Below the pieces are notes generated by a model. That model made no database searches and was not told where the DNA came from. It worked only from the letters and a program-made list of their open reading frames with translations. A stretch of DNA of 64,000 nucleotides, from positions 111,041-175,040 of the forward strand of contig JAWKQV010000015.1 of NCBI GenBank assembly GCA_041389965.1, given 5' to 3'. Made by a program: the position numbers and the translations under genes. This DNA is from Kofleriaceae bacterium. GTDB taxonomy: Bacteria; Myxococcota_A; Polyangia; Haliangiales; Haliangiaceae. This document shows positions 24,655 through 44,215 of this stretch, one piece after another (within the stretch, counting starts at the first letter, position 1; every line of letters starts with the position of its first letter).

Positions 24655-26391
24655 ATGATTCCGGCCATGCGTCGTCTCGCCTGGTCTCGCTCGCGCTTCC
24701 TCCTCGCCGCGCTGGTCCTGGGAGGCGGCGGCGCCTGCGGCCCCAGCGATCCCGCCCCGACCTGCGACGGGCTGGTGGCTGGCTCGCTGGTGATCTCCGA
24801 GATCCAGGCCGACTACGACGCGCCCACCGGGGCCAGCGGGGCCGACACCGGCCACGAGTGGTTCGAGCTGTACAACGCGTCGTCGGCGCCGATCGAGCTC
24901 GAGGGCGTCGTCCTCGAGCACATGCGCCCCAGCGAGGTGGTCGGCAAGACCCACACCATGGGCCCGGTGTCGATCCCGGCCGGTGGTTACCTGGTCCTGG
25001 GCAACGTCATCACCGAGACCGCGCCGGCCTACGTCGACTACGGCTACGGCGCCGACCTGGGCGACCTGTTCAACACCAACGGCGGCAAGCTGCGGGTGTC
25101 GTGCGGCGGCGCGGTCGTCGACGAGGCCATCTACGACAGCGTCTCGCCCGGCCACACCCGCCAGCTCGACGGCAAGCAGGCGCCCGACTACCTGACCAAC
25201 GACTCCCAGACCGCCTGGTGCGACGCGGCCGAGGTCGCCGCCGACGAGTACGACCCGGCCAACTTCGGCACGCCGGGCGCCGCCAACCAGGAGTGCATGA
25301 ACGTCATCCCTGGCCAGTGCGACGACAACGGCACGCCGCGGCCGACGGTGGCGCCGGTCCCGGGCGACCTGGTCATCACCGAGGTGATGCCAGATCCGGC
25401 GGCGGTGGGCGACGCCACCGGGGAGTGGATCGAGGTGCTGGTCAACCGCGACGTCGACCTCAACGACGTCGGCGTGGCCACCGCGACCGGCACCCCGGTG
25501 CTGGTGTCGTCGTCGACCTGCGTGCGGGCCACCGCCGGCACCTACCTGGTGTTCGCCCGGTCGGCCGATCCGGCCATGAACGGCGGCCTGCCCCGGGTCG
25601 ATGGGACCACCGTCGCCCTGGCCAACACTGGCGGCGCCGTGCGCCTGGTCATGGGCGCCACCGAGCTCGACTCGATCGCCTGGCCCAGCGCGCGCAGCGG
25701 CAAGTCCATCCAGCTGTCGGCCGGCCTGTCGACGCCGGCCGACAACGACGTCGCCACCAACCTGTGCGACGGCGCGGCCGCCTACGGCGCCGGCGACCTC
25801 GGCAGCCCCGGCGCCGCCAACCGCGACTGCGGCGCCACCATGGCCAACATGTGCCTCGACGCCGGCACCGGCCAGATGCGCCCCATCGTCAAGCCCACCG
25901 CCGGCCAGCTGGTCATCAACGAGTGGATGCCGGACCCGATGCACGTCGGTGACACCGCCGGCGAGTGGTTCGAGGTGAAGGCCCTCGCCGACGTCGACCT
26001 CAACGGCCTCCAGGCCGGCGGCGCTTCGCTGGGCGCGACGCCGATCGTCCCGGCCAGCGGCGCCTGTGTGCCCCTGGCGACCGGTGGCCTGGCTGTGTTC
26101 GCCCGCGCCGCCGTGGCCAATGGTCTGCCGCCCATGGTCACCCTGGCCGGGACCTTCAGCTTCGGGTTGACCAACGGTCCGTCGAGCTTCCAGATCGGCA
26201 TCGACAACACCAACCTGTCGACCGCGACCTGGGCGGCGACCTCCACGCCTGGCGCGTCGTGGATGCTGGACACCGACGGTACGCAATGCACGGCGGCCGC
26301 GGCGGGCGTGACGGCGTACGCGAACGGGGCCATGCCTGGCTCCGACCGTGGCTCGCCGGGGGCGGTGAACAGCCCGCCCGAGTGCCCGTGA
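24655..26391 (+). CDS. Lipoprotein with three tandem lamin-tail domains (LTD x3)
   Basis: Lipoprotein signal LLAALVLGGGGAC. The three LTD cores are GHEWFELYNASSAPIELEGVVL, GEWIEVLVNRDVDLNDVGV and GEWFEVKALADVDLNGLQ, each followed by ...GSPGA(A/V)N..C. Confidence 0.75.
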   Translation: MIPAMRRLAWSRSRFLLAALVLGGGGACGPSDPAPTCDGLVAGSLVISEIQADYDAPTGASGADTGHEWFELYNASSAPIELEGVVLEHMRPSEVVGKTHTMGPVSIPAGGYLVLGNVITETAPAYVDYGYGADLGDLFNTNGGKLRVSCGGAVVDEAIYDSVSPGHTRQLDGKQAPDYLTNDSQTAWCDAAEVAADEYDPANFGTPGAANQECMNVIPGQCDDNGTPRPTVAPVPGDLVITEVMPDPAAVGDATGEWIEVLVNRDVDLNDVGVATATGTPVLVSSSTCVRATAGTYLVFARSADPAMNGGLPRVDGTTVALANTGGAVRLVMGATELDSIAWPSARSGKSIQLSAGLSTPADNDVATNLCDGAAAYGAGDLGSPGAANRDCGATMANMCLDAGTGQMRPIVKPTAGQLVINEWMPDPMHVGDTAGEWFEVKALADVDLNGLQAGGASLGATPIVPASGACVPLATGGLAVFARAAVANGLPPMVTLAGTFSFGLTNGPSSFQIGIDNTNLSTATWAATSTPGASWMLDTDGTQCTAAAAGVTAYANGAMPGSDRGSPGAVNSPPECP

Positions 26392-26876
26392 ACCTCGTCT
26401 GGCGCGCGGCAGCGGTGGTTGTCGTCGCGGCCACCGCGGCGTGTGGTAGCCCGGCCCCGACCTGCGGGCCGTCGTCGGGCGTGGTGGCGCGCGTGATCGA
26501 CGGTGACACCATCGACCTGGCCTCGGGAGAGCGCGTCCGCTACCTGCTCATCGACACCCCGGAGTCGACCAACGGCGCCACCGACTGCTACGGCGTCAAC
26601 GCGGCCCAGGCCAACCACGACCTGGTGCTGGGCAAGACCGTCGACCTGGTCTACGACGACGCCCAGTGCACCGACCGGTTCGGGCGCCTGCTGGCCTACG
26701 TCTCGGTCGACGGGGTCGAGGTCAACTCGCTCCTGGTCGAGCGGGGCTACGCCTGCTTCCTGTACATCCCGCCGGCCGGCACCGACCGCGAGCTGGAGTT
26801 CGAGAACCTCGAGCTCGCGGCCCGGACCTCGGGCCGCGGCATGTGGTCTGCTTGCGCGGTGGTGACATGCGACTAG
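26388..26876 (+). CDS. Thermonuclease (SNase-like) lipoprotein, second copy
   Basis: GTG at 26388 overlaps the upstream TGA and is in frame with the tail of ORF 25965..26876. N-terminus VNLVWRAAAVVVVAATAAC (lipobox). SNase motifs: VIDGDTIDLASGERVRYLLIDTPE. Confidence 0.7.
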   Translation: MNLVWRAAAVVVVAATAACGSPAPTCGPSSGVVARVIDGDTIDLASGERVRYLLIDTPESTNGATDCYGVNAAQANHDLVLGKTVDLVYDDAQCTDRFGRLLAYVSVDGVEVNSLLVERGYACFLYIPPAGTDRELEFENLELAARTSGRGMWSACAVVTCD

Positions 26877-29053
26877 TCCGTCTGCTGACGACCTGCACCG
26901 TCCTGGCCGCGCTGGCGGCGCCCGCGCTGGCGGCGCCCTACGAGGCCTTCATCGACGTCGAGACCCAGGAGGATCTCGACGACCTGTTGGCCAGCGGCGA
27001 GATCTCATCGGACACCTACGACGCGCTCACCGAGCTGCTGGGCCGCGGCGTCGATCTCGATCGCGCCACCCGCGAGGACCTCTACGCGCTGCCCAACCTC
27101 ACCTACGGCGAGGTCGACGCCATCTTGGCCTACCGCGAGCTGCAGAGGTTCGTGGCCAACCCGATCGATCTGGTCGCGGCCGGCGCGCTGTCCGAGCAGA
27201 AGCTCTTGGCCATCTCGGCGTTCTTGGTGGTCGGCGATCGTAGCCGTGGCGAGTACGCGCCGCGCGGCTGGGTGCGCGCCAACCTGCGCGCCGCCCAGGG
27301 CGACGATCGGCCGCCGCCGGTCGGCGTGCGGGCCCGGGTCATGCTCGGGCGCCGCATCACGGTGGGCGCCGCCGCCACCGACACCCGGCTGCGGCTGGGC
27401 CAGGTGGCGTGGGATCCCAACCGCGACGGGCTGGTGGTCGACGACGTCCACACCTCGCTCCACGTGCCCAAGCTGTTCGCGCGCTACCGCGGCGACACCG
27501 TCGACGTCATCGCCGGCACCTACCGGGTCGGTTTCGGCGAGCGCCTGACCTTCGACAACAGCAACGACTACACGCCCGACGGCATCTACTTCGACGACCA
27601 GCTGCACTACACGCCCGACCTGGCCCTGGCCTGCCGCGAGTCGACCGGCGAGCTGGCCGGCTCGCCGTGCAGCGGCGCGTTCGACTACGTCACGCCGGAC
27701 AACAAGTGGAGCGACGGGCTGACCGGCGTCGCCGCCGGCTCGAGCCACATCAGCGTCGGCGGCGGCTACCTGCAGGCCTACGGCTGGGGCAGCTACCAGC
27801 CCAAGAGCCTGTACCAGTACCAGCTGCTCGACCGCGCCGCCTGCGCCGACCCCTACGACGCCACCGATCCGGCCTGCGCCGCGCCGCCGGTGTTCGTGCG
27901 GCCGACCGGCGGCGACGCGCTGGCGCCGGCCGCCGCGGCGTCCTACCAGACGCTTCCCAACATGTACGCCGAGTCGCTGGTCGGCGGCCACCTGGCGTTC
28001 CACGCCGCCCGCCGCGACTACGTCGGGGTGACCGCCTACGGCGCGACCACCCGGTGGCTGGCCGCGGTGCCGCCCGACGTGCGGCTCGACTTCCAGGACT
28101 GGGCCCGGACGCCCATCGGCGGCCGCTACGGCGCCATCGGCGTCAACGCCAGCCTCGGCCGGGGCATCTACGACGCCACCGTCGAGGTGACCCGCAGCTT
28201 CGATCGTTCGCCCGACCGCACCGGCGCCATCGACGGCGGCGGCGGCTTCGGCGCGATCGCCCGGTTCACCCGGTCGGTGCGCAAGCGCGAGCTGGAGCTG
28301 TCGGCGCGTTACTACGACGCCAACTTCGACAACCCCTACGCCGGGCCGATCGCCGCCGACGACATCGTCGACGGGGTGCGGGCCCGCGGCGAGCACGGGG
28401 TCCGGGCCCGCTACACCGGCGTCCACGGCGTCGCCACCATCCGCGCCTCGCTCGATCTGTGGCGGGCCTACGTGCCCGAGCTCGACGGCTATCTGGCGCG
28501 GATCGACACCTACGCCCACCTCGACGTCCAGGGCTCGGACCAGCTCCGCTACGGCCTGTGGCTCGACTTCGCCGACAAGGACCTGGGCCAGAACGGGCTC
28601 GGCGAGTGCTACAGCATCCTCGTCGAGGACAACCAGCTGGCCAAGCAGTACGCCTGCCGCGGCATGCGGCTCAAGACCACGGCGCGGGTGCGCTACCAGC
28701 CGGCGCGGCGCCTGAGCCTGTTCGGCCAGGTCCAGCACGCCTGGCTCGACGACGCGCGCTACGACAGCAAGCGCCGGAGCGATCTGTCCGCCACCGTCGA
28801 GGCCACCTGGCGACAGGCCGACGACCTGCGGCTCAAGGCCCGGGCCCGCTACCTGTTCCAGGACGTCTCGGACAACACCTACCTCGAGCAATCGATCTGG
28901 GTCTACGGCGAGGCGGTCAAGCGCCTGCGCGAGAAGGACGCGCTCACCGTCCGCCTCGACCTGTTCACGTGGCTCGACGACCGCACCCGCACCGGCCTGC
29001 GCAGCCCGTCACCCGAGCTGCGCGGCCTGCTCGGCTACGTCGCGAAGTTCTGA
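26867..29053 (+). CDS. Outer-membrane beta-barrel-like protein with N-terminal ComEA-like helix-hairpin-helix DNA-binding motifs
   Basis: ATG at 26867 (MRLVRLLTTCTVLAALAAPALAAP, signal peptide) is in frame with ORF 26666..29053. HhH motif: ATREDLYALPNLTYGEVDAILAYRE. The long alternating amphipathic beta-strand-like C-terminal region ends in Phe (...LLGYVAKF), typical of OMPs. Confidence 0.55.
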   Translation: MRLVRLLTTCTVLAALAAPALAAPYEAFIDVETQEDLDDLLASGEISSDTYDALTELLGRGVDLDRATREDLYALPNLTYGEVDAILAYRELQRFVANPIDLVAAGALSEQKLLAISAFLVVGDRSRGEYAPRGWVRANLRAAQGDDRPPPVGVRARVMLGRRITVGAAATDTRLRLGQVAWDPNRDGLVVDDVHTSLHVPKLFARYRGDTVDVIAGTYRVGFGERLTFDNSNDYTPDGIYFDDQLHYTPDLALACRESTGELAGSPCSGAFDYVTPDNKWSDGLTGVAAGSSHISVGGGYLQAYGWGSYQPKSLYQYQLLDRAACADPYDATDPACAAPPVFVRPTGGDALAPAAAASYQTLPNMYAESLVGGHLAFHAARRDYVGVTAYGATTRWLAAVPPDVRLDFQDWARTPIGGRYGAIGVNASLGRGIYDATVEVTRSFDRSPDRTGAIDGGGGFGAIARFTRSVRKRELELSARYYDANFDNPYAGPIAADDIVDGVRARGEHGVRARYTGVHGVATIRASLDLWRAYVPELDGYLARIDTYAHLDVQGSDQLRYGLWLDFADKDLGQNGLGECYSILVEDNQLAKQYACRGMRLKTTARVRYQPARRLSLFGQVQHAWLDDARYDSKRRSDLSATVEATWRQADDLRLKARARYLFQDVSDNTYLEQSIWVYGEAVKRLREKDALTVRLDLFTWLDDRTRTGLRSPSPELRGLLGYVAKF

Positions 29054-29080: not shown

Positions 29081-29671
29081 TCAGGCGGCCGGCGCCGGCG
29101 GCCCCTCGTCCTTGAGGCGGATGGGCCCGAAGTCGGCCGGCTTGTGGGGCACCGGGTGGTGCTCGGCGTAGAACGTCCGGATCCGATCCATGTCGGCGCG
29201 CACGTCGCCGGTCAGGTGGATGGGCGCGCCCATGCCCAGGCGCTTGCGCTTGTAGTCCATGTAGCCGGGGACCACCGGGACGTCGGCGCCGCGGGCGATG
29301 TGGTAGAAGCCCGACTTCCAGTGGGTCGACAGGCTGCGCGTCCCCTCGGGTGGGATGACCAGCCACAGGCGGTCGTGGGTGCGGAAGGCCTCGACCATGG
29401 TGTCGACGACGTTGTTGGCCTTGGACCGGTCGATGCCGATCGCGCCCAGCCGCTGCATGATCGGCCCCATCGGGCCGCGCAGCCAGTCGTCTTTGATCAT
29501 GAACGACATGTCGATGCCGGCGCTGGCCGCCATGGCCAGCATCAGCACCCCGTCCCAGTTGCTGGTGTGGGGCACGCCGAGGGCCACGCACTTGGCGACC
29601 GGCGGCACGGTGCCTTCGAGCTCCCAGCCGGCGAGACGGAGCAGGCGGGTGGCGAGCGGGTGCGGCTTCAT
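29081..29671 (-). CDS. Lysophospholipid acyltransferase (PlsC/YihG-like family)
   Basis: Internal Met (MKPHPLATRLLRLAGW...) of ORF 29081..30451 gives 196 aa. HX4D motif: VPHTSNWDGV. PEGTR motif: VIPPEGTRS. Confidence 0.7.
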   Translation of the reverse strand: MKPHPLATRLLRLAGWELEGTVPPVAKCVALGVPHTSNWDGVLMLAMAASAGIDMSFMIKDDWLRGPMGPIMQRLGAIGIDRSKANNVVDTMVEAFRTHDRLWLVIPPEGTRSLSTHWKSGFYHIARGADVPVVPGYMDYKRKRLGMGAPIHLTGDVRADMDRIRTFYAEHHPVPHKPADFGPIRLKDEGPPAPAA

Positions 29672-30076
29672 GGACCGGGATTGTGCCGGTCCGGGCCGGG
29701 CAGGCACGCCCCGGTGGCAACAATCTGCAAGCGCCGCCCGGTGGCCACACCGGGCCCCACGGCCGTGGCAGAGTCGACCTGGTCGGGCCACGCCGCCGGT
29801 CCATTGGTGGACCGAAGGATTTTCAGCCGGACGGAAATCCTGAACCATCGCAACGCTTCGGCACTTCCGGCGTGTCGCGCGGAGACCTACCCAGATGGAT
29901 GAGCTGACCACATCCGTCGTACCCATCGGCCGCCGCACCCGCGTCGGCGATCTGCCTGGCGAGCCCGCACCCGCGGCCGCGGGGCCCGCACCGATCCGCG
30001 GTGCCGGCCGGCGTGTCGCGCCGGCGCGGCCCGGCCCGGCTCGCGATCCGTCCACCCTCTGCACCGGGAGGTCCGC

Positions 30077-30835
30077 GTGACCCTGTTCGATGCCTCGCTG
30101 CAGTTCCCCACGGTGCTGTTCACCATCGGCCTGCTCATCGCGCTGGTGTACTGGCTGTTCGTGATCCTCGGCGCGCTCGACGTCGACCTGCTGGGCGGGG
30201 CCGACGACGTCACCGGCGCGCTCAAGGGCGGCGGCGAGGCGCTCACCGGCGGCGTCAAGGGCGCGGCCGAGATCGCGGGCGGCCACGCCGACGCCGGCGA
30301 CGCGCTGACCGGGGCCGCCAAGGGCAGCGGCGAGGCGGTCACCTCGGGCGCCGGTCTGTGGGCCTGGCTCGGGCTGACCTCGGTGCCGGTGACGGTATCG
30401 GCCTCGCTCATCATGCTGCTGGGCTGGTCGGGATCGGTGCTGCTGATGCACTACGGCACCGGCGCGGTGGGCCCGGTGCTGGGGGCGGTGCTGGCGCTGG
30501 CGGTGGTGCTAGCGGTGCTGCCGGTCGTCGGGCTGCTGGTGCGCCCGCTCAAGCCGGTGTTCGAGGTCAAGGTCGGCAAGCGCAACCGCGAGTACGTCGG
30601 CTCGACCTGCACCATCACCACCGGCCACGTCGACGACGGGTTCGGACAGGCCGTCCTCGAGGAGGGCGCCACCGTGCTGGTCATCCCGGTCCGGTGCGAC
30701 CGCGGCGGCGTGCTGCCGCGTGGGGCCCGGGCGCTGATCATCGACTTCGACGCCGCCCGCCACGCCTACCTGGTCGAGCCGGTCACCGAGCTTCTGGGCG
30801 CGCCGCCCGCCGGTGACGCCGGTGATGCCTCATAG
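30077..30835 (+). CDS. YqiJ/NfeD-like inner-membrane protein (DUF1449-like; OB-fold C-terminus)
   Basis: GTG start. TM helices (VLFTIGLLIALVYWLFVILG; LIMLLGWSGSVLL; VLGAVLALAVVLAVLPVVGLLV) are followed by a soluble domain VGSTCTITTGHVDDGFGQAVLEEGATVLVIPVRC, typical of NfeD/YqiJ partners of flotillins. Confidence 0.6.
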   Translation: MTLFDASLQFPTVLFTIGLLIALVYWLFVILGALDVDLLGGADDVTGALKGGGEALTGGVKGAAEIAGGHADAGDALTGAAKGSGEAVTSGAGLWAWLGLTSVPVTVSASLIMLLGWSGSVLLMHYGTGAVGPVLGAVLALAVVLAVLPVVGLLVRPLKPVFEVKVGKRNREYVGSTCTITTGHVDDGFGQAVLEEGATVLVIPVRCDRGGVLPRGARALIIDFDAARHAYLVEPVTELLGAPPAGDAGDAS

Positions 30836-30922
30836 CCGTCGGCCGACCGCACGGTCGTCGCGTCGTCTCGTCGTCTCGGGGGTCACGTTCGTGGCCGGCG
30901 CTGGCCGGCCGAGGAGTCTCGC

Positions 30923-33079
30923 ATGGACAAGCAGCTGCTCATCGCCGTCGTCGGCATCTCCGTGGTCGTCCTGTTCGGACTGATGGTGCTGATCGCCCGC
31001 ACCTTCCGCCAGGTCGAACAGGGTCGCGCCATGATCATCAACCGCCTGCGCGGCGAGCCCAAGGTGACCTTCTCGGGGTCGGTGGTGCTGCCGGTGGTCA
31101 ACAAGGCCGAGATCATGGACCTGTCGGTCAAGACCATCGACGTCGCCCGCCGCGGCAAGGACGGCCTGATCTGCGCCGACAACATCCGCGCCGACATCAA
31201 GGTCACGTTCTTCGTCCGGGTCAACAAGACCGTCGACGACGTGCTGCGGGTCGCGCAGTCGATCGGGTGCGCCCGGGCTTCGCAGCAGTCGACCCTCGAG
31301 GAGCTGTTCGCCGCCAAGTTCTCGGAGGCGCTCAAGACCGTCGGCAAGAAGATGGAGTTCGAGCAGCTCTACACCCAGCGCGACGTGTTCAAGGACCAGA
31401 TCATCGCGGTCATCGGCAAGGACCTCAACGGCTACGTCCTCGACGACGCCGCCATCGACTACCTCGAGCAGACGCCGATCGAGATCCTCGATCCCAACAA
31501 CGTCCTCGACGCGCTGGGCATCCGCAAGATCACCGACATCACCACGTCGGCCGCCATCGACACCAACCAGCTCAAGCAGAAGGAGCGGATGGAGCTGGGC
31601 AAGCAGAACCTGACCTCCGACGAGGCCATCTTCCGCTTCGAGCAGCAGCGGTCCGAGGCCGAGGCCAAGAAGAACAAGGAGATCGCGATCGCCAACGCCC
31701 GCGAGGAGAACGAGGCCAGCCGGTTCCGGCTCGAGGAGGAGAAGCGCACCCACGTCGACCGCCAGCGCGCCGAGGAGGCCATCCAGATGGCCGAGCAGGC
31801 CAAGCTGCGCGCGGTCCAGGTCAGCGAGCAGGGCCGGGTCCGCGAGGTCGAGGTCGAGAAGGTCCGCGTGGCCAAGGCCCACGATCTCGAGGAGGTCGTG
31901 CGCCGCCGCGAGGTCGAGCTGGGCCAGATCGAGATGGCCAAGGTGGTCGAGGCCGAGAAGCGCTCGATCGCCGACATCGTGCGGGCCCGGGTCGCGGTCG
32001 ACAAGACCGTCGCGGTCGAGGAGGAGGCCATCAAGGACCTGCGCACCGACGCCGAGGCCAAGCGCCACAAGCACGTCACCATCGTCAACGCCGAGGCGGC
32101 GGCCCAGGAGATCTTCATCAAGGACATCAAGAAGGCCGAGGCCGAGCAGCAGGTGGCGTCGGCCCACGCCAAGAAGCAGCTGATCCTGGCCGAGGCGGCC
32201 ATGGAGGCGTCCGACAAGGAGGCCCGCGCGGCGATCCGGCGCAGCGAGGGCACCCAGGCCGAGCACGCCGCGCCGGGCCTGGCCGCGGTGCGGGTCAAGG
32301 AGGCCGACGCGATCGCGCTGGAGAAGACCGGCATGGCCCAGGCCAAGGTCAAGGAGGCCCAGGTCCAGGTGGCCGACCGCGAGGGCGTGGTCGTGGCCGA
32401 GAACGTGCGGCGCAAGGCCATGGCCGAGGCGGCCGGGCGCGAGGCCGAGGCCGCGGCCATCGAGAAGACCGGCCTGGCCGAGGCGGTCGGGCTGCGCGAG
32501 AAGTTGTTGGCCGAGGTCACCGCCAAGGAGGCCGAGGCCGGCGCCATCGAGAAGCGCATGCTGGCCGAGGCCCACGGCCTGGCCCAGAAGGCCGAGGCGA
32601 TGCGCGCGCTCGAGGGCTCGGCCCGGGAGCACGAGGAGTTCCGGCTGCGGCTGGCCAACGAGCGCGAGATCGCGCTCGAGCAGATCAAGGCGCGGGTCGC
32701 GGTGTCCGACTCCCAGGCCAAGGTCATGGCCGAGGCCATGGGCAAGGCCGACATCAAGATCGTCGGCGGCGACGGCCAGTTCTTCGACCGCTTCGTGCGG
32801 GCGGTGTCCCTGGGCCAGGCGATCGACGGCGTGGTCGACAGCTCCGAGGTGGTGCGCGGCGCGCTGGGCGACCGGCTCACCAGCGGCTCGGGCGCGCTGG
32901 TGCAAGACCTGAAGGACGTGGTCGGCGCCGTCGGTGGCTCGGCGGCGAACCTGCAGCACCTGTCGGTGGCGGCCGCGCTGGCCGGGCTGATGGCCAAGGC
33001 CGATGAGCCGACCCGGGCCAAGCTGGCGAGCCTGCTCGAGCAGGCCAAGCAGCTGGGCCTCGACGCACCGACCCGGTGA
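30923..33079 (+). CDS. Flotillin family protein (SPFH/band-7 domain; YqiK/FloT-like) with long coiled-coil C-terminus
   Basis: N-terminal TM MDKQLLIAVVGISVVVLFGLMVLIA, then an SPFH core (RAMIINRLRGEPKVTFSGSVVLPVV...DNIRADIKVTFFVRV). It has extensive EA-rich coiled-coil repeats. GAGGAG RBS. Confidence 0.85.
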   Translation: MDKQLLIAVVGISVVVLFGLMVLIARTFRQVEQGRAMIINRLRGEPKVTFSGSVVLPVVNKAEIMDLSVKTIDVARRGKDGLICADNIRADIKVTFFVRVNKTVDDVLRVAQSIGCARASQQSTLEELFAAKFSEALKTVGKKMEFEQLYTQRDVFKDQIIAVIGKDLNGYVLDDAAIDYLEQTPIEILDPNNVLDALGIRKITDITTSAAIDTNQLKQKERMELGKQNLTSDEAIFRFEQQRSEAEAKKNKEIAIANAREENEASRFRLEEEKRTHVDRQRAEEAIQMAEQAKLRAVQVSEQGRVREVEVEKVRVAKAHDLEEVVRRREVELGQIEMAKVVEAEKRSIADIVRARVAVDKTVAVEEEAIKDLRTDAEAKRHKHVTIVNAEAAAQEIFIKDIKKAEAEQQVASAHAKKQLILAEAAMEASDKEARAAIRRSEGTQAEHAAPGLAAVRVKEADAIALEKTGMAQAKVKEAQVQVADREGVVVAENVRRKAMAEAAGREAEAAAIEKTGLAEAVGLREKLLAEVTAKEAEAGAIEKRMLAEAHGLAQKAEAMRALEGSAREHEEFRLRLANEREIALEQIKARVAVSDSQAKVMAEAMGKADIKIVGGDGQFFDRFVRAVSLGQAIDGVVDSSEVVRGALGDRLTSGSGALVQDLKDVVGAVGGSAANLQHLSVAAALAGLMAKADEPTRAKLASLLEQAKQLGLDAPTR

Positions 33080-33209
33080 CCCGGCGCTCGGCCCGCGCGA
33101 GGCGGGGTGGCCGGTGGCCCCACGGCGCCGGCGCCCCCCTCGGTCGTCCCCGAACTTCCGTGCCCGACGGCGCCTGCGCCATCGGCGCGCTCGTCCCTGC
33201 GAGGTCCCC

Positions 33210-36200
33210 ATGGCTGATGTCGACGCCGCCCTGACCGGTGGCAACTACCAGGTGCTCCGGCAACGGCTGGCCGCGGCCGGCGCCGAGCTGGCGCGCCGCG
33301 CCGAGGCGCTCAACCAGCGCCGCAAGACGCTGTTCGGGGCGACCGAGCCGCAGCTCTTGGCCACCGAGCGGGTGCGCTCGGCCCACAACTGCGCGCCGGT
33401 CGATATCGTCGCGGTGGGCGACGAGCTGTTGCTCGGCTTCAACGTGTTCCTCGGGCTCAAGAGCGAGACCCAGGTCAGCGACGTGCTGGCGCGCCACCGG
33501 TTCGAGCCGACCGAGGGCGGCGGCTTCGACACCGCGCCGGTGGCGGCCGGCGGCCCCGACGACTTCCTGGCCGGGCCCGACCTGGCCCGAGACTTCGCCA
33601 ACCTGTACCGCTACTACCGCGACGCCCGCCTGATCCAGCTCATCAAGCGCGACACCCTGCTGTTGGCGGTGTTCCAGGCCGGCGCCACCTGGCGCGACCA
33701 CAAGGTGCTGCGCTGGCGCATCGAGCCCGACGGCCGGGTGGTCTACGTCGACGACCGCGGCGACCGCGACCTGGCCGGGCTGTACCCGCCGGCCTACGAC
33801 TTCGCGTGGCGCGAGGTCACCCGCGACGACCAGGTGGCCGGACGCCACCCGCACTACAACCTGCTCGACCAGGTGTTCGTCGAGACCGTCGGCGGCGACC
33901 TGACCATCAAGGTCGAGGACAACACCGAGACCGGCCGCGGCATCTACCGCGAGCCGGTCGAGGACGCCAACCAGTCGCTCGACGACGCCCGCATCTGGTA
34001 CGCGCCCATCGGCAAGCCGGGCGGGCTGATCGTGATCAAGGTGCTGCCGTTCCGGGAGACCACCTGGCGCTACCTGGTGTTCGACGCCCGCTCGCGCACG
34101 GTGGTGCGGGCCGACGGCATCGGCCAGGGCTGCCGCTCGTTGCCCGAGGACCACGGCGTGGTGTTCCCGGGTGGCTACGTGCTGGTCGGCGGCGCCCACA
34201 AGACCTTCGACGGCGACGCCACCGACTACGTGCTCAAGCGCGAGCTGCGCTCGCCCAACGGCGAGGACGTGCTGTACGTCTACCACCGCGGCCGCGACGG
34301 CACCTACCTGCTGTACCCGTACAACCTGATCGACAAGGCGGTGGCCACGCCGATCACCTGCCACGGCTACTCGCTGTTCGCCGACGGCCGGATGGTGGTG
34401 CTGCGGGCCGGCTCGGCCGAGCCGACCCGGGTCCACCCGATGCAGGTGTGGCGCACGCCGTTCACCTCGGCCGAGCACGCGGCGTCGGCGCCCACTGACG
34501 GCAGCTACCTGGCCAAGGTCGGCAACGCCGAGCTGGTGCGCGGGCTGTCGGACGCGCTGTCGATCGCCCGGCTGGCCGCCAGCGACCGGCCCCAGCGCTC
34601 GACCTTCGAAGACCTGCTGGCGCTGGCGACCAAGGCCGGCGACGCCTACTACTGGCTGGGCCACCCCGACGCCGGCGAGCTGAGCGGCGCGGTGGCCGAC
34701 GTCAAGGCCGCTGCGAAGCTTATCCTCGACGAGTACGACAAGGTGCTGGCGCTGGAGGCGGCCGCCGCGGTGGCGGTCACCGAGGCCGAGGCCGCGGTGG
34801 CCGAGCGGCTGCGAGCGACCCGGTCCGAGGGCTGGGACACGGTCGAGCCGTTCCTCGACGCGCTGACCGGGCTGCGCGGGCTGCGCGGGCTGCTCATCAG
34901 CCAGCGCGAGCTGCGGTTCGTCGACGTGGCGCGCCTGGCCGCGCTCGAGGCCGAGGTGGTGGCGGCGTTCGACCGCGTCACCGCGGACTGTGTGACGCTC
35001 TTGGCGCGCGGCGACGCCTTCGGGGCGCTGGTGGCGCGGGCCGCGGACCTGGCCGCGCAGGCCGGCCAGCTGACCACGGCGGCGGCGGTGGCGCCGCTGC
35101 GGGCCCAGATCGACGAGGTGGCCGGCGGGCTCGACCTGCTGGGCTCGGTGATCGGCTCGCTGGCCATCGCCGACACCACCCGCCGCACCGCGATCCTCGA
35201 GAACATCACCGACGCGTTCGCCGCGGTGAACCGCGGCCGGGCGGTGGTCGAGGGCCGCCACCGCGAGCTGGCCACCCACGAGGGCCGGGCCGAGTTCGGC
35301 GCCCAGGTGAAGCTGCTCGGCCAGACCGTGGCGTCGGCGCTGGCCCAGTGCGACACGCCCGAGCGGTGCGACCAGGAGCTGGCCCGGCTGTTGGTCTCGC
35401 TCGAAGAGCTGGAGGGCCGGTTCGCCGAGCTCGACGAGCTGGCCGCGGAGCTGGCCACCAAGCGTGAGGAGATCGTCGACGCGGTCGGGGCCAGAAAGCA
35501 GCTCCTGGCGGCCGAGCGGCAACGCCGGACCGCCAACCTGCACAAGGCGGCGCAGCGGATCCTCGACGGCGTCGCCCGCCGGGCCGGTGCGCTGACCAGC
35601 GCCGACGAGATCAACGCGTACTTCGCGTCCGACGCGATGATCGCCAAGCTGCGCGACGTGGTCGCCGAGCTGGCGGCGCTGGGCGACGCGGTCAAGGCCG
35701 ACGAGCTGGAGGCCCGCCTCAAGGCCGCGCGCCAGGACGCGCTGCGCGGGCAGCGCGACGCCGCCGACCTGTTCGAGGACGGCGGCGGGTTGATCCGGTT
35801 GGGCGACCACCGCTTCCCGGTCAACCAGCAGCCGCTCGAGCTGATGATCGTGCCCCACGACGACGGGCTGGCGATCCACCTGGCCGGCACCGACTACTAC
35901 GAGGCGGTGACCGACCCGCGGCTGGTCGCGGCCCGCGCGCTGTGGGATCAGGACCTGCCGTCGGAGTCGGCCACGGTCTACCGCGGCGAGTACCTGGCGG
36001 CGGCGGTGCTGGCCGAGGCCGAGGCCGGCGCCGGCGGGCTGACGGTGGCGGCGCTCCACGACCAGGTCCGGGCCGGCACGCTCGAGGCGACGCTGCGCCA
36101 GCTAGCCCAGGCCCGCTACGACGAGGGCTACGAGCGCGGCGTGCACGACCACGACGCGGCCCGCATCCTCGAGAAGCTGTTGGCCATGCGCGACGGCGCC

Positions 36201-38516
36201 GGGCTGCTCGGCTTCGCCGGGCCGGCCCGGGCCCTGGCGGTGGTGGCCTGGGTCGGGCTGGTCGACGACGGCGCCCGCGCCCGCTGGCACCGCGCGGCCC
36301 AGAGCCTGGGCCGGCTGGCCGAGACCCTGGGCGATCGCGGCGCCCAGGCCCAGCTGGCGGTCGAGCTGACCCGGGCCATCGAGCGGCGCCTGGCCGACGA
36401 CCCGGCGCTGGCCGGCGCGGGCCTGGTGGCGGCCGACGCGCCGACCGCCGCGGCCTACCTGGTGCGCGAGCTGGCGGCGCCCCACCCGCGGTGGGTGGTC
36501 AGCGGCGCCGCGGTGGCGCTGCGCGACGCGCTGTACGCCGAGCTCGACGGCCGCGGCGCGCGGGCGACCTTCGACGACGACCTGGCGGCGATGGGGGCCG
36601 GGTCGGGGGCCGCGCTGACCCTGGCGCGGGCGTGGATCGACGGCGTCGTGGCGCGCCGCCCCGAGCTGGCCGCGGCCGCGGTCGAGGCGGCGGCGCTGGT
36701 GGCCACGCCCGGGCTGGCGCGCGAGCCATCGAGCGCGATCGTCGAGGCCGAGGTGGCCGGCTTGTACGGCCGCCACCCGCGCATCGTCGGCGGGGTGTTG
36801 CCGGTGCGGCTCGACGAGCTGGTGGCGCGGCTGGCCCGGTTCCGCGCCGACACCGTGCCGGCGTTCCGCGCCTACCGTGCGGCCCGGGCCGAGGTCGCCG
36901 AGCGTGAGCGGGCCCGGCTGCGGCTGGGCGAGCTGACGCCGCGGGTCATGTCGTCGTTCGTGCGCAACCGCCTCATCGATCAGGTCTACCTGCCGCTGGT
37001 CGGCGCCAACCTGGCCAAGCAGCTGGGCGCGGCCGGGGCGGCGAAGCGCACCGATCAGATGGGCCTGTTGCTATTGGTGTCGCCGCCCGGGTACGGCAAG
37101 ACCACGCTCATGGAGTACGTGGCGGCGCGGCTGGGCCTGGCCTTCGTCAAGGTCAACGGCCCGGCGCTGGGCCACGCCGTGACCTCGCTCGATCCGGCCG
37201 ACGCCGGCAACGCCACCGCCCGCCAGGAGGTCGAGAAGGTGAACCTGGCGCTCGAGCTGGGCACCAACGTGATGCTCTACCTCGACGACATCCAGCACAC
37301 CTCGCCCGAGCTGCTGCAGAAGTTCATCTCGCTGTGCGACGCGCAGCGCAAGATCGAGGGCGTGTGGCGGGGCCGGACCCGCACCTACGATCTGCGCGGC
37401 AAGAAGTTCTGCGTGGTGATGGCCGGCAACCCGTACACCGAAAGCGGCGAGCAGTTCCGCATCCCCGACATGCTGGCCAACCGCGCCGACGTCTACAACC
37501 TGGGCGACGTGCTGGCCGGGCAGGGCGACGCCTTCGCGCTGTCGTTCCTGGAGAACGCGCTGACCGCCAACCCGGTGCTGGCGCCGTTGGCCGGGCGCGA
37601 CCTGGCCGACGTCGGCAAGCTCATCCGCCTGGCCGCCGGCGAGCCGGTGCCGACCACCGAGCTGTCCCACGGCTACGCCGCGGTCGAGCTGGAGGAGCTC
37701 TTGCTGGTCATCCGCCACCTGGTCACCGTCCAGGGCACCCTCCTCAAGGTCAACGCCGCGTACATCCACTCGGCGGCCCAGGCCGACGCGTTCCGCACCG
37801 AGCCGCCGTTCAAGCTGCAGGGCAGCTACCGCAACATGGGCAAGATCGCCGAGCGGGTGGTCGCGGCGATGACCGCCGACGAGCTCGAGCGGCTCATCGA
37901 TGATCACTACCGCGGCGAGGCCCAGACGCTGACCTCCGCGGCCGAGCAGAACCTGCTCAAGCTGGCCGAGCTGCGCGGGCGGCTCGACGCCGCCGGGGCG
38001 GCGCGGTGGGCCGAGATCAAGGCCGAGTACCAGCGCCAGCGGCGCATGGGCGGCGCGGCCGACGATCCGGTGGCGCGCCTGGTCGGCACGTTGGGTGGCC
38101 TGGGCGCCGAGCTGGCCGCGATCCGCGCAGCGCTGGCCGGCGCGGCGTCGACCGCGGAGCTGGGCGGTGAGGTGCGCGCGCTTCGCCAGGCCGTGGTGGC
38201 GGCGGCCCAGCGCGCGACCGCCGACGGGGCGGCCCGGGACCCCGAGGCGTGGTTGGGGCCGCGGCTCGACGCGCTGGCCGCCAGCCTGGCCAGCCCCCGC
38301 GCGGCCGGGCCGGGGCCGCGCACCGACGGGGCCGCGGTCGACGCCGAGCGGCTCTTGGGCCAGATCCGGCGCATCGAGGATTCGCTGGTGCCGGTCATCG
38401 GCGCCGCGGTCGATCAGCGCGCCGGCGATCAGGTGCTGGCGATGAAGATGGTGCAGATCATCGAGCTGCTCGAGCAGCTCGACGCCCGCCTGGCGCTGGG
38501 CGACCGGCGGGGCTGA
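33210..38516 (+). CDS. Very large (1768 aa) protein with C-terminal MoxR-like AAA+ ATPase domain, encoded directly downstream of the NfeD-like/flotillin pair
   Basis: ATG at 33210 is in frame with ORF 33003..38516. Walker A: LLLVSPPGYGKTTLMEY. Walker B: VMLYLDDIQHTSPE. Sensor/MoxR-like: FCVVMAGNPYTESGEQFRIPDMLANRADVYNL. The ~1300-aa N-terminal region matches no family I recognise. Confidence 0.65.
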   Translation: MADVDAALTGGNYQVLRQRLAAAGAELARRAEALNQRRKTLFGATEPQLLATERVRSAHNCAPVDIVAVGDELLLGFNVFLGLKSETQVSDVLARHRFEPTEGGGFDTAPVAAGGPDDFLAGPDLARDFANLYRYYRDARLIQLIKRDTLLLAVFQAGATWRDHKVLRWRIEPDGRVVYVDDRGDRDLAGLYPPAYDFAWREVTRDDQVAGRHPHYNLLDQVFVETVGGDLTIKVEDNTETGRGIYREPVEDANQSLDDARIWYAPIGKPGGLIVIKVLPFRETTWRYLVFDARSRTVVRADGIGQGCRSLPEDHGVVFPGGYVLVGGAHKTFDGDATDYVLKRELRSPNGEDVLYVYHRGRDGTYLLYPYNLIDKAVATPITCHGYSLFADGRMVVLRAGSAEPTRVHPMQVWRTPFTSAEHAASAPTDGSYLAKVGNAELVRGLSDALSIARLAASDRPQRSTFEDLLALATKAGDAYYWLGHPDAGELSGAVADVKAAAKLILDEYDKVLALEAAAAVAVTEAEAAVAERLRATRSEGWDTVEPFLDALTGLRGLRGLLISQRELRFVDVARLAALEAEVVAAFDRVTADCVTLLARGDAFGALVARAADLAAQAGQLTTAAAVAPLRAQIDEVAGGLDLLGSVIGSLAIADTTRRTAILENITDAFAAVNRGRAVVEGRHRELATHEGRAEFGAQVKLLGQTVASALAQCDTPERCDQELARLLVSLEELEGRFAELDELAAELATKREEIVDAVGARKQLLAAERQRRTANLHKAAQRILDGVARRAGALTSADEINAYFASDAMIAKLRDVVAELAALGDAVKADELEARLKAARQDALRGQRDAADLFEDGGGLIRLGDHRFPVNQQPLELMIVPHDDGLAIHLAGTDYYEAVTDPRLVAARALWDQDLPSESATVYRGEYLAAAVLAEAEAGAGGLTVAALHDQVRAGTLEATLRQLAQARYDEGYERGVHDHDAARILEKLLAMRDGAGLLGFAGPARALAVVAWVGLVDDGARARWHRAAQSLGRLAETLGDRGAQAQLAVELTRAIERRLADDPALAGAGLVAADAPTAAAYLVRELAAPHPRWVVSGAAVALRDALYAELDGRGARATFDDDLAAMGAGSGAALTLARAWIDGVVARRPELAAAAVEAAALVATPGLAREPSSAIVEAEVAGLYGRHPRIVGGVLPVRLDELVARLARFRADTVPAFRAYRAARAEVAERERARLRLGELTPRVMSSFVRNRLIDQVYLPLVGANLAKQLGAAGAAKRTDQMGLLLLVSPPGYGKTTLMEYVAARLGLAFVKVNGPALGHAVTSLDPADAGNATARQEVEKVNLALELGTNVMLYLDDIQHTSPELLQKFISLCDAQRKIEGVWRGRTRTYDLRGKKFCVVMAGNPYTESGEQFRIPDMLANRADVYNLGDVLAGQGDAFALSFLENALTANPVLAPLAGRDLADVGKLIRLAAGEPVPTTELSHGYAAVELEELLLVIRHLVTVQGTLLKVNAAYIHSAAQADAFRTEPPFKLQGSYRNMGKIAERVVAAMTADELERLIDDHYRGEAQTLTSAAEQNLLKLAELRGRLDAAGAARWAEIKAEYQRQRRMGGAADDPVARLVGTLGGLGAELAAIRAALAGAASTAELGGEVRALRQAVVAAAQRATADGAARDPEAWLGPRLDALAASLASPRAAGPGPRTDGAAVDAERLLGQIRRIEDSLVPVIGAAVDQRAGDQVLAMKMVQIIELLEQLDARLALGDRRG

Positions 38517-38540: not shown

Positions 38541-39065
38541 TCACGGCGCGATGGTGAACACGAAGTCGCGCGGCGCGTGGCTGTGGCAGTCGACGCAGAT
38601 GGTGTTGGGCGGGCCGCTGCCGCCGGTGCCGTCGGCCACCACGGTGCCGTCGGCCACCTCGTACCAGTACCAGTTGCTGCCGTCGGTCCCGTCGGCGTCC
38701 TTGCGGTACACCGCGTACCCGATGATGGCGTCGGCGGGGTCGCGCAGCTCCTTGACCGAGGCCGCCCCGATCGGGAACGGCCCGGCGGTCGAGCCGTGGA
38801 GCGCGTCGTTGTTGCAGATGCGGTTGCGCCCGTGGGGTGACGGGGCGCGGGCGTCGTGGGGCGCGGCCTCGCAGTTCCAGCTCAGGTAGTGGCCGGCTGC
38901 GATCCAGGCGTCGACGTTGGCGGCGCCGCTGGGTGGGGTCTGGGCGACCTGGGCTGCATCGGTGCCGGGGGCGGCGTCGATGGTCGCGGCGGTGCCGTCG
39001 TCGCCGCCGCACGCGGCCAGGAAGGCCATCGCGATGGCCAGTGGGATCAGGGGTTCGGTTTCCAT
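38541..39065 (-). CDS. Lipoprotein with CxxCH motif (putative c-type cytochrome-like)
   Basis: Internal Met of ORF 38541..39965: METEPLIPLAIAMAFLAACGGDD (lipobox), then ...NTICVDCHSHAP. RBS GGAGGA. Confidence 0.55.
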   Translation of the reverse strand: METEPLIPLAIAMAFLAACGGDDGTAATIDAAPGTDAAQVAQTPPSGAANVDAWIAAGHYLSWNCEAAPHDARAPSPHGRNRICNNDALHGSTAGPFPIGAASVKELRDPADAIIGYAVYRKDADGTDGSNWYWYEVADGTVVADGTGGSGPPNTICVDCHSHAPRDFVFTIAP

Positions 39066-40011: not shown

Positions 40012-41037
40012 TCAGCGGGCCCGGGCGGGGCGCCCGCGCGCGGGGGGCGCGAACAGCGGCGTGGCCAGCCCCGCGCGATCGTAGAACCGCCAGCGGCGTC
40101 GGATCTGCCCGCGCTGGAACAGCGCGATCTCGGCCACCGTCACCGTGGCCGGCCCGACGGTGAGCCGGGCCAGCGACACCACGAAGTCGCCCGCGCCCCA
40201 CAGCGTCAGCGGCGCGCGGATCAGGTCGGGGTGGCGCGCGAACAGCCCGCGCAGCCCCGGCGCGATCGCCGCGACGCCGCCCAGGTCGGCCGGCAGGGTC
40301 TGGTCGCTGTCGGTGGTGTGCTCGGTCAGCGCGGCGGTGGCCGCGGCGACGTCGCGCCGCGCGAACCCGGCCGCGGCCTGCTCGACGGTGGCCAGGTTGG
40401 CCCGCTCGAGCCCCGACGCCGCCGACACCTCGACGGTGGTGGTGGCGGGGACCGCGGGTAACGCCGGACGCACCGGGCCGGGGGCCTGCCCCAGCTGGCC
40501 GCGCACCGTGGCGTGGTCGAGCAGGCTCCACTCGTCGGCGATCTGGTTGGCGTCGTCGAAGGTGGCCTGGTGGAACCACAGCACGCCGAGCGGCGTGGCG
40601 GTGGCCGGGGCGCCGGGGCCCGCCGGCGGGGCGGTGCCGACCACCCGCACGATGGCGGCCACTGTGCGCTGGTTGACCAGCACAAGCATGGGCTCGGCCA
40701 CCGCGTCGGGCACGTCCGCGCGCAGCGCCCAGGCGGCGGCCACCACCGCGTCGCGGCCGCGCCGCTCGTCGTCGGCGCCGGTGGCGGCGTGACCGACCAC
40801 GTCGGCGGCGTAGCGGCGGGCGAACCCGGCGCGATCGCCGTGGCTCCACGCGGTCCACCCGTCGACGTAGGCCGCGGCCAGCTCGTCGCCGACCAGCGGG
40901 GTCGGCGTCACCGGCACCGCGGTGATCTCGCGCGGCGGTGGCGGCGGCGTGGCGGTCCCGGCCGGAGCCGGCGCGGGGTCCTTGCAGGCGGCCGCGGCGG
41001 CCACGATCACCAGCAGCGCGCGGCGCGGGACGACCAT
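40012..41037 (-). CDS. Lipoprotein of unknown function (two NTF2/SnoaL-like-looking halves)
   Basis: MVVPRRALLVIVAAAAACKD lipobox, 341 aa, no recognised motif. Confidence 0.5.
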   Translation of the reverse strand: MVVPRRALLVIVAAAAACKDPAPAPAGTATPPPPPREITAVPVTPTPLVGDELAAAYVDGWTAWSHGDRAGFARRYAADVVGHAATGADDERRGRDAVVAAAWALRADVPDAVAEPMLVLVNQRTVAAIVRVVGTAPPAGPGAPATATPLGVLWFHQATFDDANQIADEWSLLDHATVRGQLGQAPGPVRPALPAVPATTTVEVSAASGLERANLATVEQAAAGFARRDVAAATAALTEHTTDSDQTLPADLGGVAAIAPGLRGLFARHPDLIRAPLTLWGAGDFVVSLARLTVGPATVTVAEIALFQRGQIRRRWRFYDRAGLATPLFAPPARGRPARAR

Positions 41038-41080
41038 CGGCGCGATCTAGCCCGAGCGTCGGCGGCGGCGCAAGCGCTGG

Positions 41081-42316
<1,236 letters not shown>

Positions 42317-43078
42317 CGGCGGTGGCGAAGAAGGTCCGCACCGCGGTCTGGTGGAAGTGGATGAGCGTGGCGTGCACCAGCGGCAGCGCGCGCGCCAGCA
42401 GCGGCGCGGCGGTGGCCGCCGGCAGGTCGCCGAAGCGCTCGAGCAGGACGCGGGTCTCGTGGGCCACCAGGCGATCGGCCAGCTCGACGAAGATGGCCAG
42501 GTCGGCCGGCTCGAAGCCGCGCTCGGCGGTGAAGCCGAGCCCGCGCCACTGGCTCCACAGCGCCAGCACCCGCTCGCTGTCGGCCGCCAGCTCCCGGTCG
42601 CCGCCGACGCCGCGCACCGGCACCAGGCCCAGCTCGATCAGCCGCTCGGCGTCGGCGGCGTCGACCCCGTGGCGGGCCAGCGCGTCGTCGAGCCGCACCG
42701 CACGGGCGTGGTCGCCGATGACGTCGGCCGGCAGCCGCGCGGCGATCTCGGCCAGCAGGCTCTGCTGGCTGGCCGGCAGCGCGGTCGTGTCGTCGGCCAG
42801 CATGGCGCGGATGGCGTGGAGCGGCAGGAACCGCTCCTCCTGCAGGCGGCGGATCAGGCGCAGCCGCTCGACGTGGGCCGGGCTGTACCAGGCCATGTTG
42901 CGGCCGGTCTTGGTGCCCTCGTCGACCAGGCCCTGCTGGATGTAGAAGTGGATGGCCTGGCGCGACAGGCCAGTGGCCGCGCACAGGTCTTTCATGCGCA
43001 GGCGATCGGTGCCAGCGGCCGGCGCGGTCGTCGGGGCGGCGGTGGCGCGGCCGGGGCGGCCGGCGCGCGCGGCGGGCT

Positions 43079-44215
43079 TCACGCGGGCGCCTCGACGGTG
43101 CACGGCGCGGTGGGCCGGGCCACGCACGCCAGCACCAGGCCGCGCGCGCGCTCGGCCGCGGTCAGGCAGTTGGGCTCATCCATGGTCACCGCGCCGTCGA
43201 CCAGCGTCACCGCGCACGCGCCGCAGCCGCCCATCGCGCACGACAGCTTGAGCGGCACGCCCGCGGCCAGGCCCGCCTCGAGGACGGTGTCGCCGGGACG
43301 GACGATGGCGCGGGTGGTGACGCCGCCGCGGCGGATCGTCACCGGCTGCGCGGCGGTCACCGCGGCGGCGCGCGGCGCGAAGAACCGCTCCTCCCGGATC
43401 TGGGCCGGGGCGACGTCGCGCGCGGCCAAGGCCCCGCGGGCCGCGGCCATCATCGGCTCGGGCCCGCACACCAGGAACTCGACGGCGGCGTCGAGCGAGT
43501 CGGCCGGGGCGAGCTGGTCGAGCTGGGCCGCCAGCCGCGGCGCGGTCAGCGGCCCGCCGGCGTCGTCGAGCACGTGGACCACCTGGAGCCGGTCCGGGTG
43601 GCGCGCGGCCAGGTCGGCCAGCGCGTCGGCGAAGATGATCGCGGCGCGATCGCGGTTGCCGTAGAGCAGCGCGACGCGGGTGGCGGCGTCGGTGGCCAGG
43701 GTGGCGCGGATGATCGCCATGATGGGCGTGATGCCGCTGCCGCCGGCGATGGCCACGACGTGGCGCGGCCCAGCGGCGGGGGGCAGCGTGAAGTCGCCCG
43801 ACGGGCCCAGCAGGCGGAGCACGTCGCCGACCCCGACCGTCGTCGTGAGGTAGGTCGACATGCGGCCACCCGGCACCCGCTTGACGGTGATCGCGGCGCG
43901 GGCCGGGTCGCGCCCGTCGGACGAGGCCGAGTAGGCGCGGCGCACCCGCTGGCCGGCGATGGTGGCCTCGATGGTGAAGAACTGGCCCGGCGTGAACGCC
44001 AGCGCGCCGCCGGCGGGATCGCGCAGCCACAGGGTCACGGCGTCGGCGGTCTCGCGAGTGATCGCGTCGATCACCACGTGGCGAGCGGCGTCGGCCCGGG
44101 GCGGCGCCGCGGCCGGGCGCGGCGGCCGGGTGACGAGCGGCGGCGGTGTTCTGCCGGTCAGGCCCCGGAGCAACATGGCGACGTCGCGCCGGGCCTGGGT
44201 GAATCGCGGGACCAT
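43079..44215 (-). CDS. Ferredoxin-NAD(P)+ reductase-type oxidoreductase with C-terminal plant-type [2Fe-2S] ferredoxin domain (PaaE/phthalate-dioxygenase-reductase-like)
   Basis: Within ORF 43079..44953, starting MVPRFTQARRDVAMLL. FAD RxYS motif: RRAYSAS. NAD motif: AIAGGSGITP. 2Fe-2S motif: SCAMGGCGACAV...C. Confidence 0.7.
   Translation of the reverse strand: MVPRFTQARRDVAMLLRGLTGRTPPPLVTRPPRPAAAPPRADAARHVVIDAITRETADAVTLWLRDPAGGALAFTPGQFFTIEATIAGQRVRRAYSASSDGRDPARAAITVKRVPGGRMSTYLTTTVGVGDVLRLLGPSGDFTLPPAAGPRHVVAIAGGSGITPIMAIIRATLATDAATRVALLYGNRDRAAIIFADALADLAARHPDRLQVVHVLDDAGGPLTAPRLAAQLDQLAPADSLDAAVEFLVCGPEPMMAAARGALAARDVAPAQIREERFFAPRAAAVTAAQPVTIRRGGVTTRAIVRPGDTVLEAGLAAGVPLKLSCAMGGCGACAVTLVDGAVTMDEPNCLTAAERARGLVLACVARPTAPCTVEAPA

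Follow-up and report, generated by a model that had tools for sequence, protein, structure and literature searches.

A conserved trio of YqiJ-like, flotillin and giant AAA+ ATPase genes as a candidate bacterial membrane-maintenance module

We describe a trio of genes that encode a YqiJ/YuaF-type (NfeD-like) membrane protein, a flotillin and a giant soluble AAA+ ATPase, located in a 64-kb stretch of DNA (hereafter the window; ~74% GC) from a Kofleriaceae bacterium (Myxococcota; assembly GCA_041389965.1, contig JAWKQV010000015.1). The ATPase is a genuine and conserved partner of the YqiJ-like/flotillin pair, and the genes that accompany the trio elsewhere are associated with envelope and membrane stress. 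We favor, with a probability of roughly 0.5, the interpretation that the trio is a self-contained operon for a membrane-maintenance module, in which the ATPase would draw on ATP turnover to remodel membrane assemblies of flotillin (and of PspA).

The first two genes have known counterparts: yqiJ-yqiK of Escherichia coli and yuaF-floT of Bacillus subtilis share their gene order and encode homologous proteins, but unlike the window locus these are two-gene units that lack an ATPase gene. We checked the adjacency of yqiJ and yqiK in E. coli K-12 directly (sibD/ibsD follow yqiK), in agreement with an initial annotation of the window, made from the DNA alone, that had cited this pair as the classical unit.

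The combination of all three genes has also been described, contrary to that annotation, which considered it novel. Ravi et al. 2024 (mSystems 9:e00847-23, PMC11237479; preprint 2020) reported an operon that combines CesT/Tir(YjfI)-PspA, flotillin, an AAA+ ATPase, a YqiJ/YuaF protein with three transmembrane (TM) segments and sometimes PLD; they found that abbreviated operons without PspA are widespread, and they proposed a chaperone-like, ESCRT-like role in sub-membrane dynamics. Their account is one paragraph of comparative genomics and contains no experiment. All three proteins of the window trio correspond to theirs, domain architecture included: a flotillin, a propeller-helical-AAA+ protein and a 3-TM YqiJ/YuaF protein are all present. 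In Pseudomonas and other Gammaproteobacteria, we independently recovered the full form of the operon, which has YjfI-PspA upstream and PLD downstream; the window locus, which is without the CesT/Tir (YjfI, DUF2170)-PspA dyad, is the abbreviated form, of which it adds a further example. Their paper (PMC11237479) does not connect the ATPase with DUF3686 and the label 'DNA repair ATPase', nor does it mention the DD Walker B motif or the affinity to AAA_5, all of which are described below. Our literature searches for DUF3686, PF12458, and flotillin together with 'DNA repair ATPase' found nothing, and a survey of SPFH proteins in Pseudomonas aeruginosa PA14 (PMC13086221) mentions no such ATPase.

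The ATPase is a conserved partner of the YqiJ-like/flotillin pair

When one genome per species was scanned, at least 571 loci with relatives of the ATPase came up, and the best 80 of them were taken with 10-kb flanks. Represented among these closest relatives are Myxococcota, Actinomycetota, Gammaproteobacteria, Planctomycetota and Acidobacteriota, and 78 of the loci have upstream sequence; in 76 of the 78, the ATPase gene is immediately preceded by a flotillin gene on the same strand (tblastn with the window proteins). Unsupervised clustering of the open reading frames (ORFs) in the 80 loci returned only three families that are conserved throughout: the ATPase (80 loci), flotillin (77) and the YqiJ-like protein (73), the last of these in the same position, upstream of flotillin, wherever it was found (73/80). 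The order extends to the five most distant members of the family that were looked up (six loci; 30–32% identity in the N-terminal domain), at all of which a ~200-aa gene and a ~650-aa gene precede the ATPase; at one of these members both partner genes were confirmed as homologous. The trio is also present on a Deinococcus plasmid, and 13 plasmid records, megaplasmids included, carry the family.

Two exceptions come from Labilithrix-like genomes, in which an ATPase of 1927–1929 aa is preceded by unrelated genes (L047, 9914–15703; L010, 9926–15709). At L010, genes for OmpA, DUF11, LamG and CopD proteins stand between flotillin and the long ATPase; L047 lacks a flotillin gene within 10 kb. The long ATPase may be a paralogue, or the operon may have been disrupted. 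These two loci are what could be cited for the idea that the position of the ATPase gene behind a yqiJ-yqiK-type pair is a coincidence of the Kofleriaceae genome, an idea to which we attach a negligible probability: order and strand are kept in 76 of the 78 loci, across phyla, and in all five distant members. The initial annotation had pointed to a neighborhood survey that might find homologues mostly away from SPFH genes; the survey found the opposite, and the linkage is not due to chance.

The family is large: the architecture of the ATPase is shared by more than 5277 homologues, the N-terminal domain alone forms 735 clusters at 50% identity, and full-length members have 1600–1900 aa. One of them, in a Kofleriaceae (Myxococcota) metagenome-assembled genome, is 100% identical to the window ATPase. 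In E. coli genomes, we found no DNA-level match to the Xenorhabdus ATPase.

Extended operons contain membrane-stress genes

In ten or eleven gammaproteobacterial loci, genes for YjfI (DUF2170) and PspA/IM30 lie directly upstream of the trio, and the downstream genes include a PLD-family hydrolase, a peptidase M50B and a rhomboid protein. Another extended arrangement is on the well-studied megaplasmid pQBR103 of Pseudomonas fluorescens SBW25 (L085, 1–13091), on which a complete yjf-like set is joined directly to the trio, which ends a ten-gene cluster on the + strand: YjfI, PspA, rhomboid, DUF2491, DUF350, DUF1190, a glutathionylspermidine-synthase-like protein, and then the YqiJ-like, SPFH and ATPase proteins. 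The cluster would offer a convenient experimental system. Among the five distant members, three have a gene for TelA (toxic anion resistance, PF05816) within a few kb (L082, 13001–14221; L083, 13502–14608; L089, 12176–13303); where it was checked, the GC content of these genomes is low (L082, 36%; L083, 40%). The additional conserved neighbors (PspA, YjfI, rhomboid, PLD, M50B and TelA) are envelope and membrane-stress genes, not genes of defense or DNA repair.

These neighbors bear on a proposal, already raised by the initial annotation in the words 'defence-like machine', that the trio is an anti-phage or conflict system, i.e., a membrane-associated abortive-infection or defense module. Genes of the PspA and TelA types respond to envelope damage, which phage can cause; the family is patchily distributed and occurs on megaplasmids (the 13 plasmid records); and a HipA toxin-antitoxin pair and RNA-repair-like genes adjoin the distant locus L089. 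We nevertheless consider a defense function very improbable: searches of PADLOC-DB 2.0 gave the ATPase no matches other than IetA and mad8 (E 0.002–0.007, over ~30 residues at the Walker A motif), which we regard as noise, and gave the other two proteins none; 50,697 phage records contain no match; the conserved domains of the trio include no effector, be it a nuclease, a protease or another kind; and the neighbors in the window are ordinary metabolic and regulatory genes.

Domain architecture of the giant ATPase

From its N-terminus, the ATPase comprises a helix, a β-propeller-like domain, helical bundles of spectrin-like type, a long and probably helical middle region, a single AAA+ module and a helical C-terminal tail. 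The initial annotation saw no recognizable family in the first ~1300 residues; in fact, two Pfam families map there, DUF3686 (PF12458, E 8.8e-183) and, within the helical bundles, DUF7902 (PF25472, E 1e-20). We prepared AlphaFold2 models of residues 1–700 (mean predicted local distance difference test score (pLDDT), 73.6) and 1181–1768 (63.7). The first of these has an N-terminal helix, ~22 β-strands between residues 48 and 415, and helical bundles from residue 430 to 700; the pLDDT values of the DUF3686 region are mostly 70–90, with residues 303–383 poorly defined. Nearly all of the Protein Data Bank structures that Foldseek matched to the DUF3686 model are β-propellers (the WD40 domain of LRRK2, CyRPA, GH43/GH32 enzymes, prolyl oligopeptidase and the N-terminal domain of clathrin), and these matches are weak (E 1e-3 to 1e-2). 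The DUF3686 domain is presumed to be a module for recognition of a partner or substrate. Residues 700–1180 have a helix-favoring composition; a second, degenerate AAA domain was considered for this region and rejected, sequence scans having found neither a second P-loop nor a Pfam match there.

The initial annotation had also imagined a membrane-anchored remodeling machine. Remodeling remains the best reading, but the ATPase itself has no TM segment; the TM segments of the module are confined to the products of the first two genes. Neither did Pfam scans of the ATPase detect a protease, DNA-binding, helicase or nuclease domain.

The latter result is pertinent to the name under which the family is stored in public databases. 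Of the best 120 homologues, every one that NCBI has named is called a 'DNA repair ATPase'; support for this name is not visible, and the genomic context points to the membrane. The label appears to originate with Pfam, which describes DUF3686 as 'ATPase involved in DNA repair'. Taken at face value, it would mean that the large protein acts upon DNA and that its neighbors are irrelevant, a reading for which the label is the sole basis, along with a weak, P-loop-level similarity to RuvB (RuvB_N). That similarity covers ~50 residues around the Walker A motif and scores 25.6 bits against a cutoff of 282. Moreover, no repair genes are conserved nearby, the invariant neighbors being membrane proteins, and we found no paper in support of the name. 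We place hardly any credence in a role in DNA repair, and the label is probably wrong.

The AAA+ core

The core contains a Walker A motif (SPPGYGKTT), a Walker B motif (LYLDD, within LYLDDIQH), the sensor-1 Asn in GNPYTE and a candidate Arg finger in PDMLANR. The motifs that the initial annotation quoted are thus present, and they are also invariant across the family: SPPGYGKTT, hhhhDDIQH (where h is hydrophobic), GNPYTE and PDMLxNR are retained even by members whose N-terminal domains share only 30% identity, an invariance that speaks for an active enzyme. One family-wide peculiarity is that the Walker B motif ends in DD, without the Glu of the usual DE. The loop after strand β2 (VNGPALGH), as read from the sequence, does not contain the aromatic-hydrophobic-Gly motif of threading translocases.

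The initial annotation described the core as MoxR/dynein-related-like, a description that holds in part. The only Pfam AAA model to exceed its threshold over the whole core is AAA_5 (30.3 bits against a cutoff of 22); the Pfam AAA model spans just the N-terminal half, and AAA_3, the MoxR model, falls below its threshold (14.4 bits against 27). The model of residues 1181–1768 shows a standard AAA+ α/β core (pLDDT 70–90), followed by a helical lid and tail. At moderate confidence, a β-hairpin is placed between helix 3 and the sensor-1 strand (residues 201–214 of the modeled piece), and no clear helix-2 hairpin is visible. NorQ, a member of the MoxR family, is the top Foldseek match of this model, although its lead over RuvB, ClpX and Lon is marginal; ClpA, FtsH and Vps4 are matched as well, all of them with E values from 1e-6 to 1e-5. 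Sequence searches with the ATPase against the Protein Data Bank produced matches at the level of the Walker A motif and nothing more extensive. The MoxR family (NorQ, RavA) shares with the window ATPase an AAA_5-type core and, by our reading of the sequences, a resemblance between GNP...IPDMLANR and the MoxR sensor-1/Arg-finger region. The window ATPase differs in being five times larger, in its unrelated N-terminal domains, in its DD Walker B motif and in its sub-threshold AAA_3 score, and no gene for a VWA partner was found either among the conserved neighbors in the 80 loci or in the window. On these sequence criteria we class the core as AAA_5-type and not as a bona fide MoxR.

The two membrane partners

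The YqiJ-like protein has three hydrophobic segments (residues 6–42, 96–124 and 126–162), a variable linker rich in Gly, Asp and Ala, and a C-terminal soluble domain of ~70 aa (residues ~165–235). A family profile built from 26 members aligns with E. coli YqiJ (hhalign probability 93.5%, E 2.4e-7) across the last two TM segments and the soluble domain. Alignment of this domain with the soluble domain of B. subtilis YuaF (2K14) falls in the right region and is not significant (E 0.77). The protein has no match in Pfam (E <= 0.01), NCBIfam or PADLOC; it is therefore not a canonical NfeD (PF01957), and the profile comparison assigns it to a YqiJ/DUF1449-like type instead.

The flotillin is recognized by the Band_7 model (PF01145, E 1e-5, above cutoff) and by its similarity to E. 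coli YqiK (BLASTP E 2e-31). It comprises an N-terminal TM segment (residues 1–31), an SPFH domain (30–238), a coiled coil (~240–600) rich in Glu, Ala, Lys and Arg (EAKRQ), and a C-terminal domain; it is ~165 aa longer than YqiK, chiefly in the coiled-coil region.

Layout of the window locus

The three genes are co-oriented (Table 1), as the initial annotation had reported, and separated by gaps of 87 bp (YqiJ-like/flotillin) and 130 bp (flotillin/ATPase). The GC content at third codon positions (GC3) is 0.95–0.98 in all three ORFs, which in a ~74% GC genome marks them as genuine coding sequence. The motifs GGAGG, GAGGAG and GAGG are located 5–8 nt before the three starts (GGAGG is 5 nt from the GTG of the YqiJ-like gene). 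For the ATPase, the mechanically called ORF reaches back to 33003 and so overlaps the flotillin gene; we place the start at MADVD..., where alignments with homologues begin at residue 1 and which GAGG precedes. A divergent acyltransferase gene, which shares a 405-bp upstream region with the trio, and a convergent gene for a predicted lipoprotein, 24 bp past the ATPase stop codon, delimit the trio as a discrete unit. Scans of this high-GC DNA for promoters and terminators gave no informative signal.

Table 1. Coordinates of the gene trio, its domains and its flanking genes in the window
Feature	Position	Strand	Description
PlsC-type acyltransferase	29081..29671	-	PF01553; divergent upstream flank
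YqiJ/YuaF-type (NfeD-like) small inner-membrane protein	30077..30835	+	252 aa; GTG start; GC3 0.95; YqiJ profile match
Flotillin (SPFH/Band 7) scaffold protein	30923..33079	+	718 aa; Band_7, YqiK homology
Giant soluble ATPase	33210..38516	+	1768 aa, starts MADVD...; DUF3686, DUF7902, AAA+
DUF3686 domain	33285..34652	+	residues 26–481
DUF7902 domain	35013..35267	+	residues 602–686
AAA+ core	37059..37529	+	residues ~1284–1440; AAA_5
Predicted lipoprotein	38541..39065	-	174 aa; signal peptide, LAAC lipobox; convergent downstream flank

The initial annotation had further suggested a small upstream ORF. The only separate candidate, of 61 codons (29895–30080, +), has a stop codon that overlaps the GTG of the YqiJ-like gene (GTGA), is rich in Pro, Ala and Arg, and has a GC3 of ~82% by eye, below that of the real genes; we rejected it, as none of the 80 related loci has an equivalent ahead of the module, at either the protein or the DNA level. 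The 130-bp gap wholly contains no ORF of at least 20 aa; two short ORFs on the + strand (33076–33234 and 33107–33217) extend over the start codon of the ATPase.

A proposed role in remodeling sub-membrane assemblies

Pairing of an SPFH cage with an AAA+ machine is an established theme: HflK/C forms a cage that encloses the membrane AAA+ protease FtsH. By analogy with other SPFH proteins, we envisage that the flotillin, anchored by its single TM segment, would oligomerize to build a scaffold or cage on the cytoplasmic side of the inner membrane. Its NfeD-like membrane partner would be the 3-TM YqiJ/YuaF-type protein, with a C-terminal soluble domain that may contact flotillin. The energy-consuming component would be the soluble 1768-aa protein, whose single AAA+ module presumably forms a ring, and whose β-propeller, borne upon long spectrin-like helical arms, could recognize the flotillin assembly or the proteins that it holds. 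ATP turnover would then serve to assemble, remodel or dismantle the polymers beneath the membrane, which, where the operon has the extended gammaproteobacterial form, would include that of the co-encoded, ESCRT-III-like PspA. Our data show the domain architecture, the gene linkage and the association with membrane-stress genes; formation of the ring, the physical contacts and the direction of remodeling are features that we infer.

HflK/C-FtsH resembles the proposed module in principle, in that an SPFH scaffold is coupled functionally to an inner-membrane AAA+ machine; the likeness is one of analogy. FtsH is a protease of the classical AAA clade that has TM segments and carries an M41 domain, whereas the window ATPase is soluble, has no protease domain, is of AAA_5 type with a putative hairpin before sensor 1, and carries a propeller and helical arms. 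The second comparison is with Vps4 and ESCRT-III of archaea and eukaryotes, in which an ATPase is dedicated to a sub-membrane polymer; the ESCRT-III relative PspA is co-encoded in the extended operons. This comparison is also purely analogical: the window ATPase has no MIT domain, is probably not of the classical AAA clade, and matches Vps4 in Foldseek no better than it matches RuvB, ClpX or NorQ.

Bearing in mind that a 2025 review considers a Vps4-like ATPase for PspA to be apparently absent from bacteria, we offer a bolder and distinctly more tentative idea: the DUF3686 AAA+ protein could be the missing bacterial ATP-dependent remodeler of sub-membrane scaffolds, a functional Vps4 analogue that evolved independently from an AAA_5-type core, and that would disassemble or recycle flotillin cages and, where co-encoded, PspA/ESCRT-III polymers. 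The function of bacterial flotillins, and the regulation of PspA polymers without a Vps4-like ATPase, are open questions, the latter explicitly so in that review. An ATPase that is nearly always encoded with a flotillin and an NfeD-like partner, and sometimes with PspA, is therefore an obvious experimental entry point, and if it does act as a remodeler, then bacterial flotillins would have an energy source of their own, and their function would become easier to approach by experiment.

The main rival to scaffold remodeling is the processing of client proteins: the flotillin/YqiJ-like cage would gather damaged or unassembled membrane proteins, and the ATPase would extract, unfold or assemble these clients, leaving the scaffold itself alone. 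Such a system would parallel FtsH inside its HflK/C cage, minus the protease domain; a β-propeller is a typical domain for the binding of clients or adaptors; and genes for rhomboid and M50B intramembrane proteases follow the ATPase gene in some loci. In addition, FloA-NfeD of Staphylococcus aureus is reported, in work cited in PMC13086221, to be an ATP-independent holdase that holds unfolded proteins, which leaves room for an ATP-driven partner. The ATPase, on the other hand, has neither a protease nor a TM domain of its own, and no aromatic pore-loop motif can be read from its sequence. We consider client processing a serious but rather unlikely alternative; the present data fit action upon scaffold or client alike.

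Several observations weigh against the remodeling interpretation. The DD Walker B motif implies that hydrolysis may be slow or unusual, and the VNGPALGH loop means that classic substrate threading is not assured. The near-equal Foldseek E values across clades do not permit assignment of the core to any one AAA+ clade, and neither structural model exceeds moderate confidence (pLDDT 64 and 74). The 64-kb window contains no PspA or YjfI (tblastn), and at the two Labilithrix-like loci a long ATPase is separated from flotillin. Finally, our literature searches found no experimental work on any member of the ATPase family.

Other genes in the window

Upstream of the trio (24655–29053, +) are genes for a 578-aa protein with a lamin-tail domain (LTD) and for a 795-aa protein without a Pfam match. 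Further upstream (9716–11986, +), a 756-aa protein joins the contractile-injection-system core domain eCIS_core to SLT, PG_binding_1 and Peptidase_M15_3 domains, an unusual combination with peptidoglycan hydrolases. On the other side of the trio (40012–43127, -), genes for a SnoaL-like cyclase-fold protein, a protein with a weak, below-threshold match to AurF-like di-iron oxygenases, and a MerR regulator form a cluster, possibly a small unit for tailoring or secondary metabolism.

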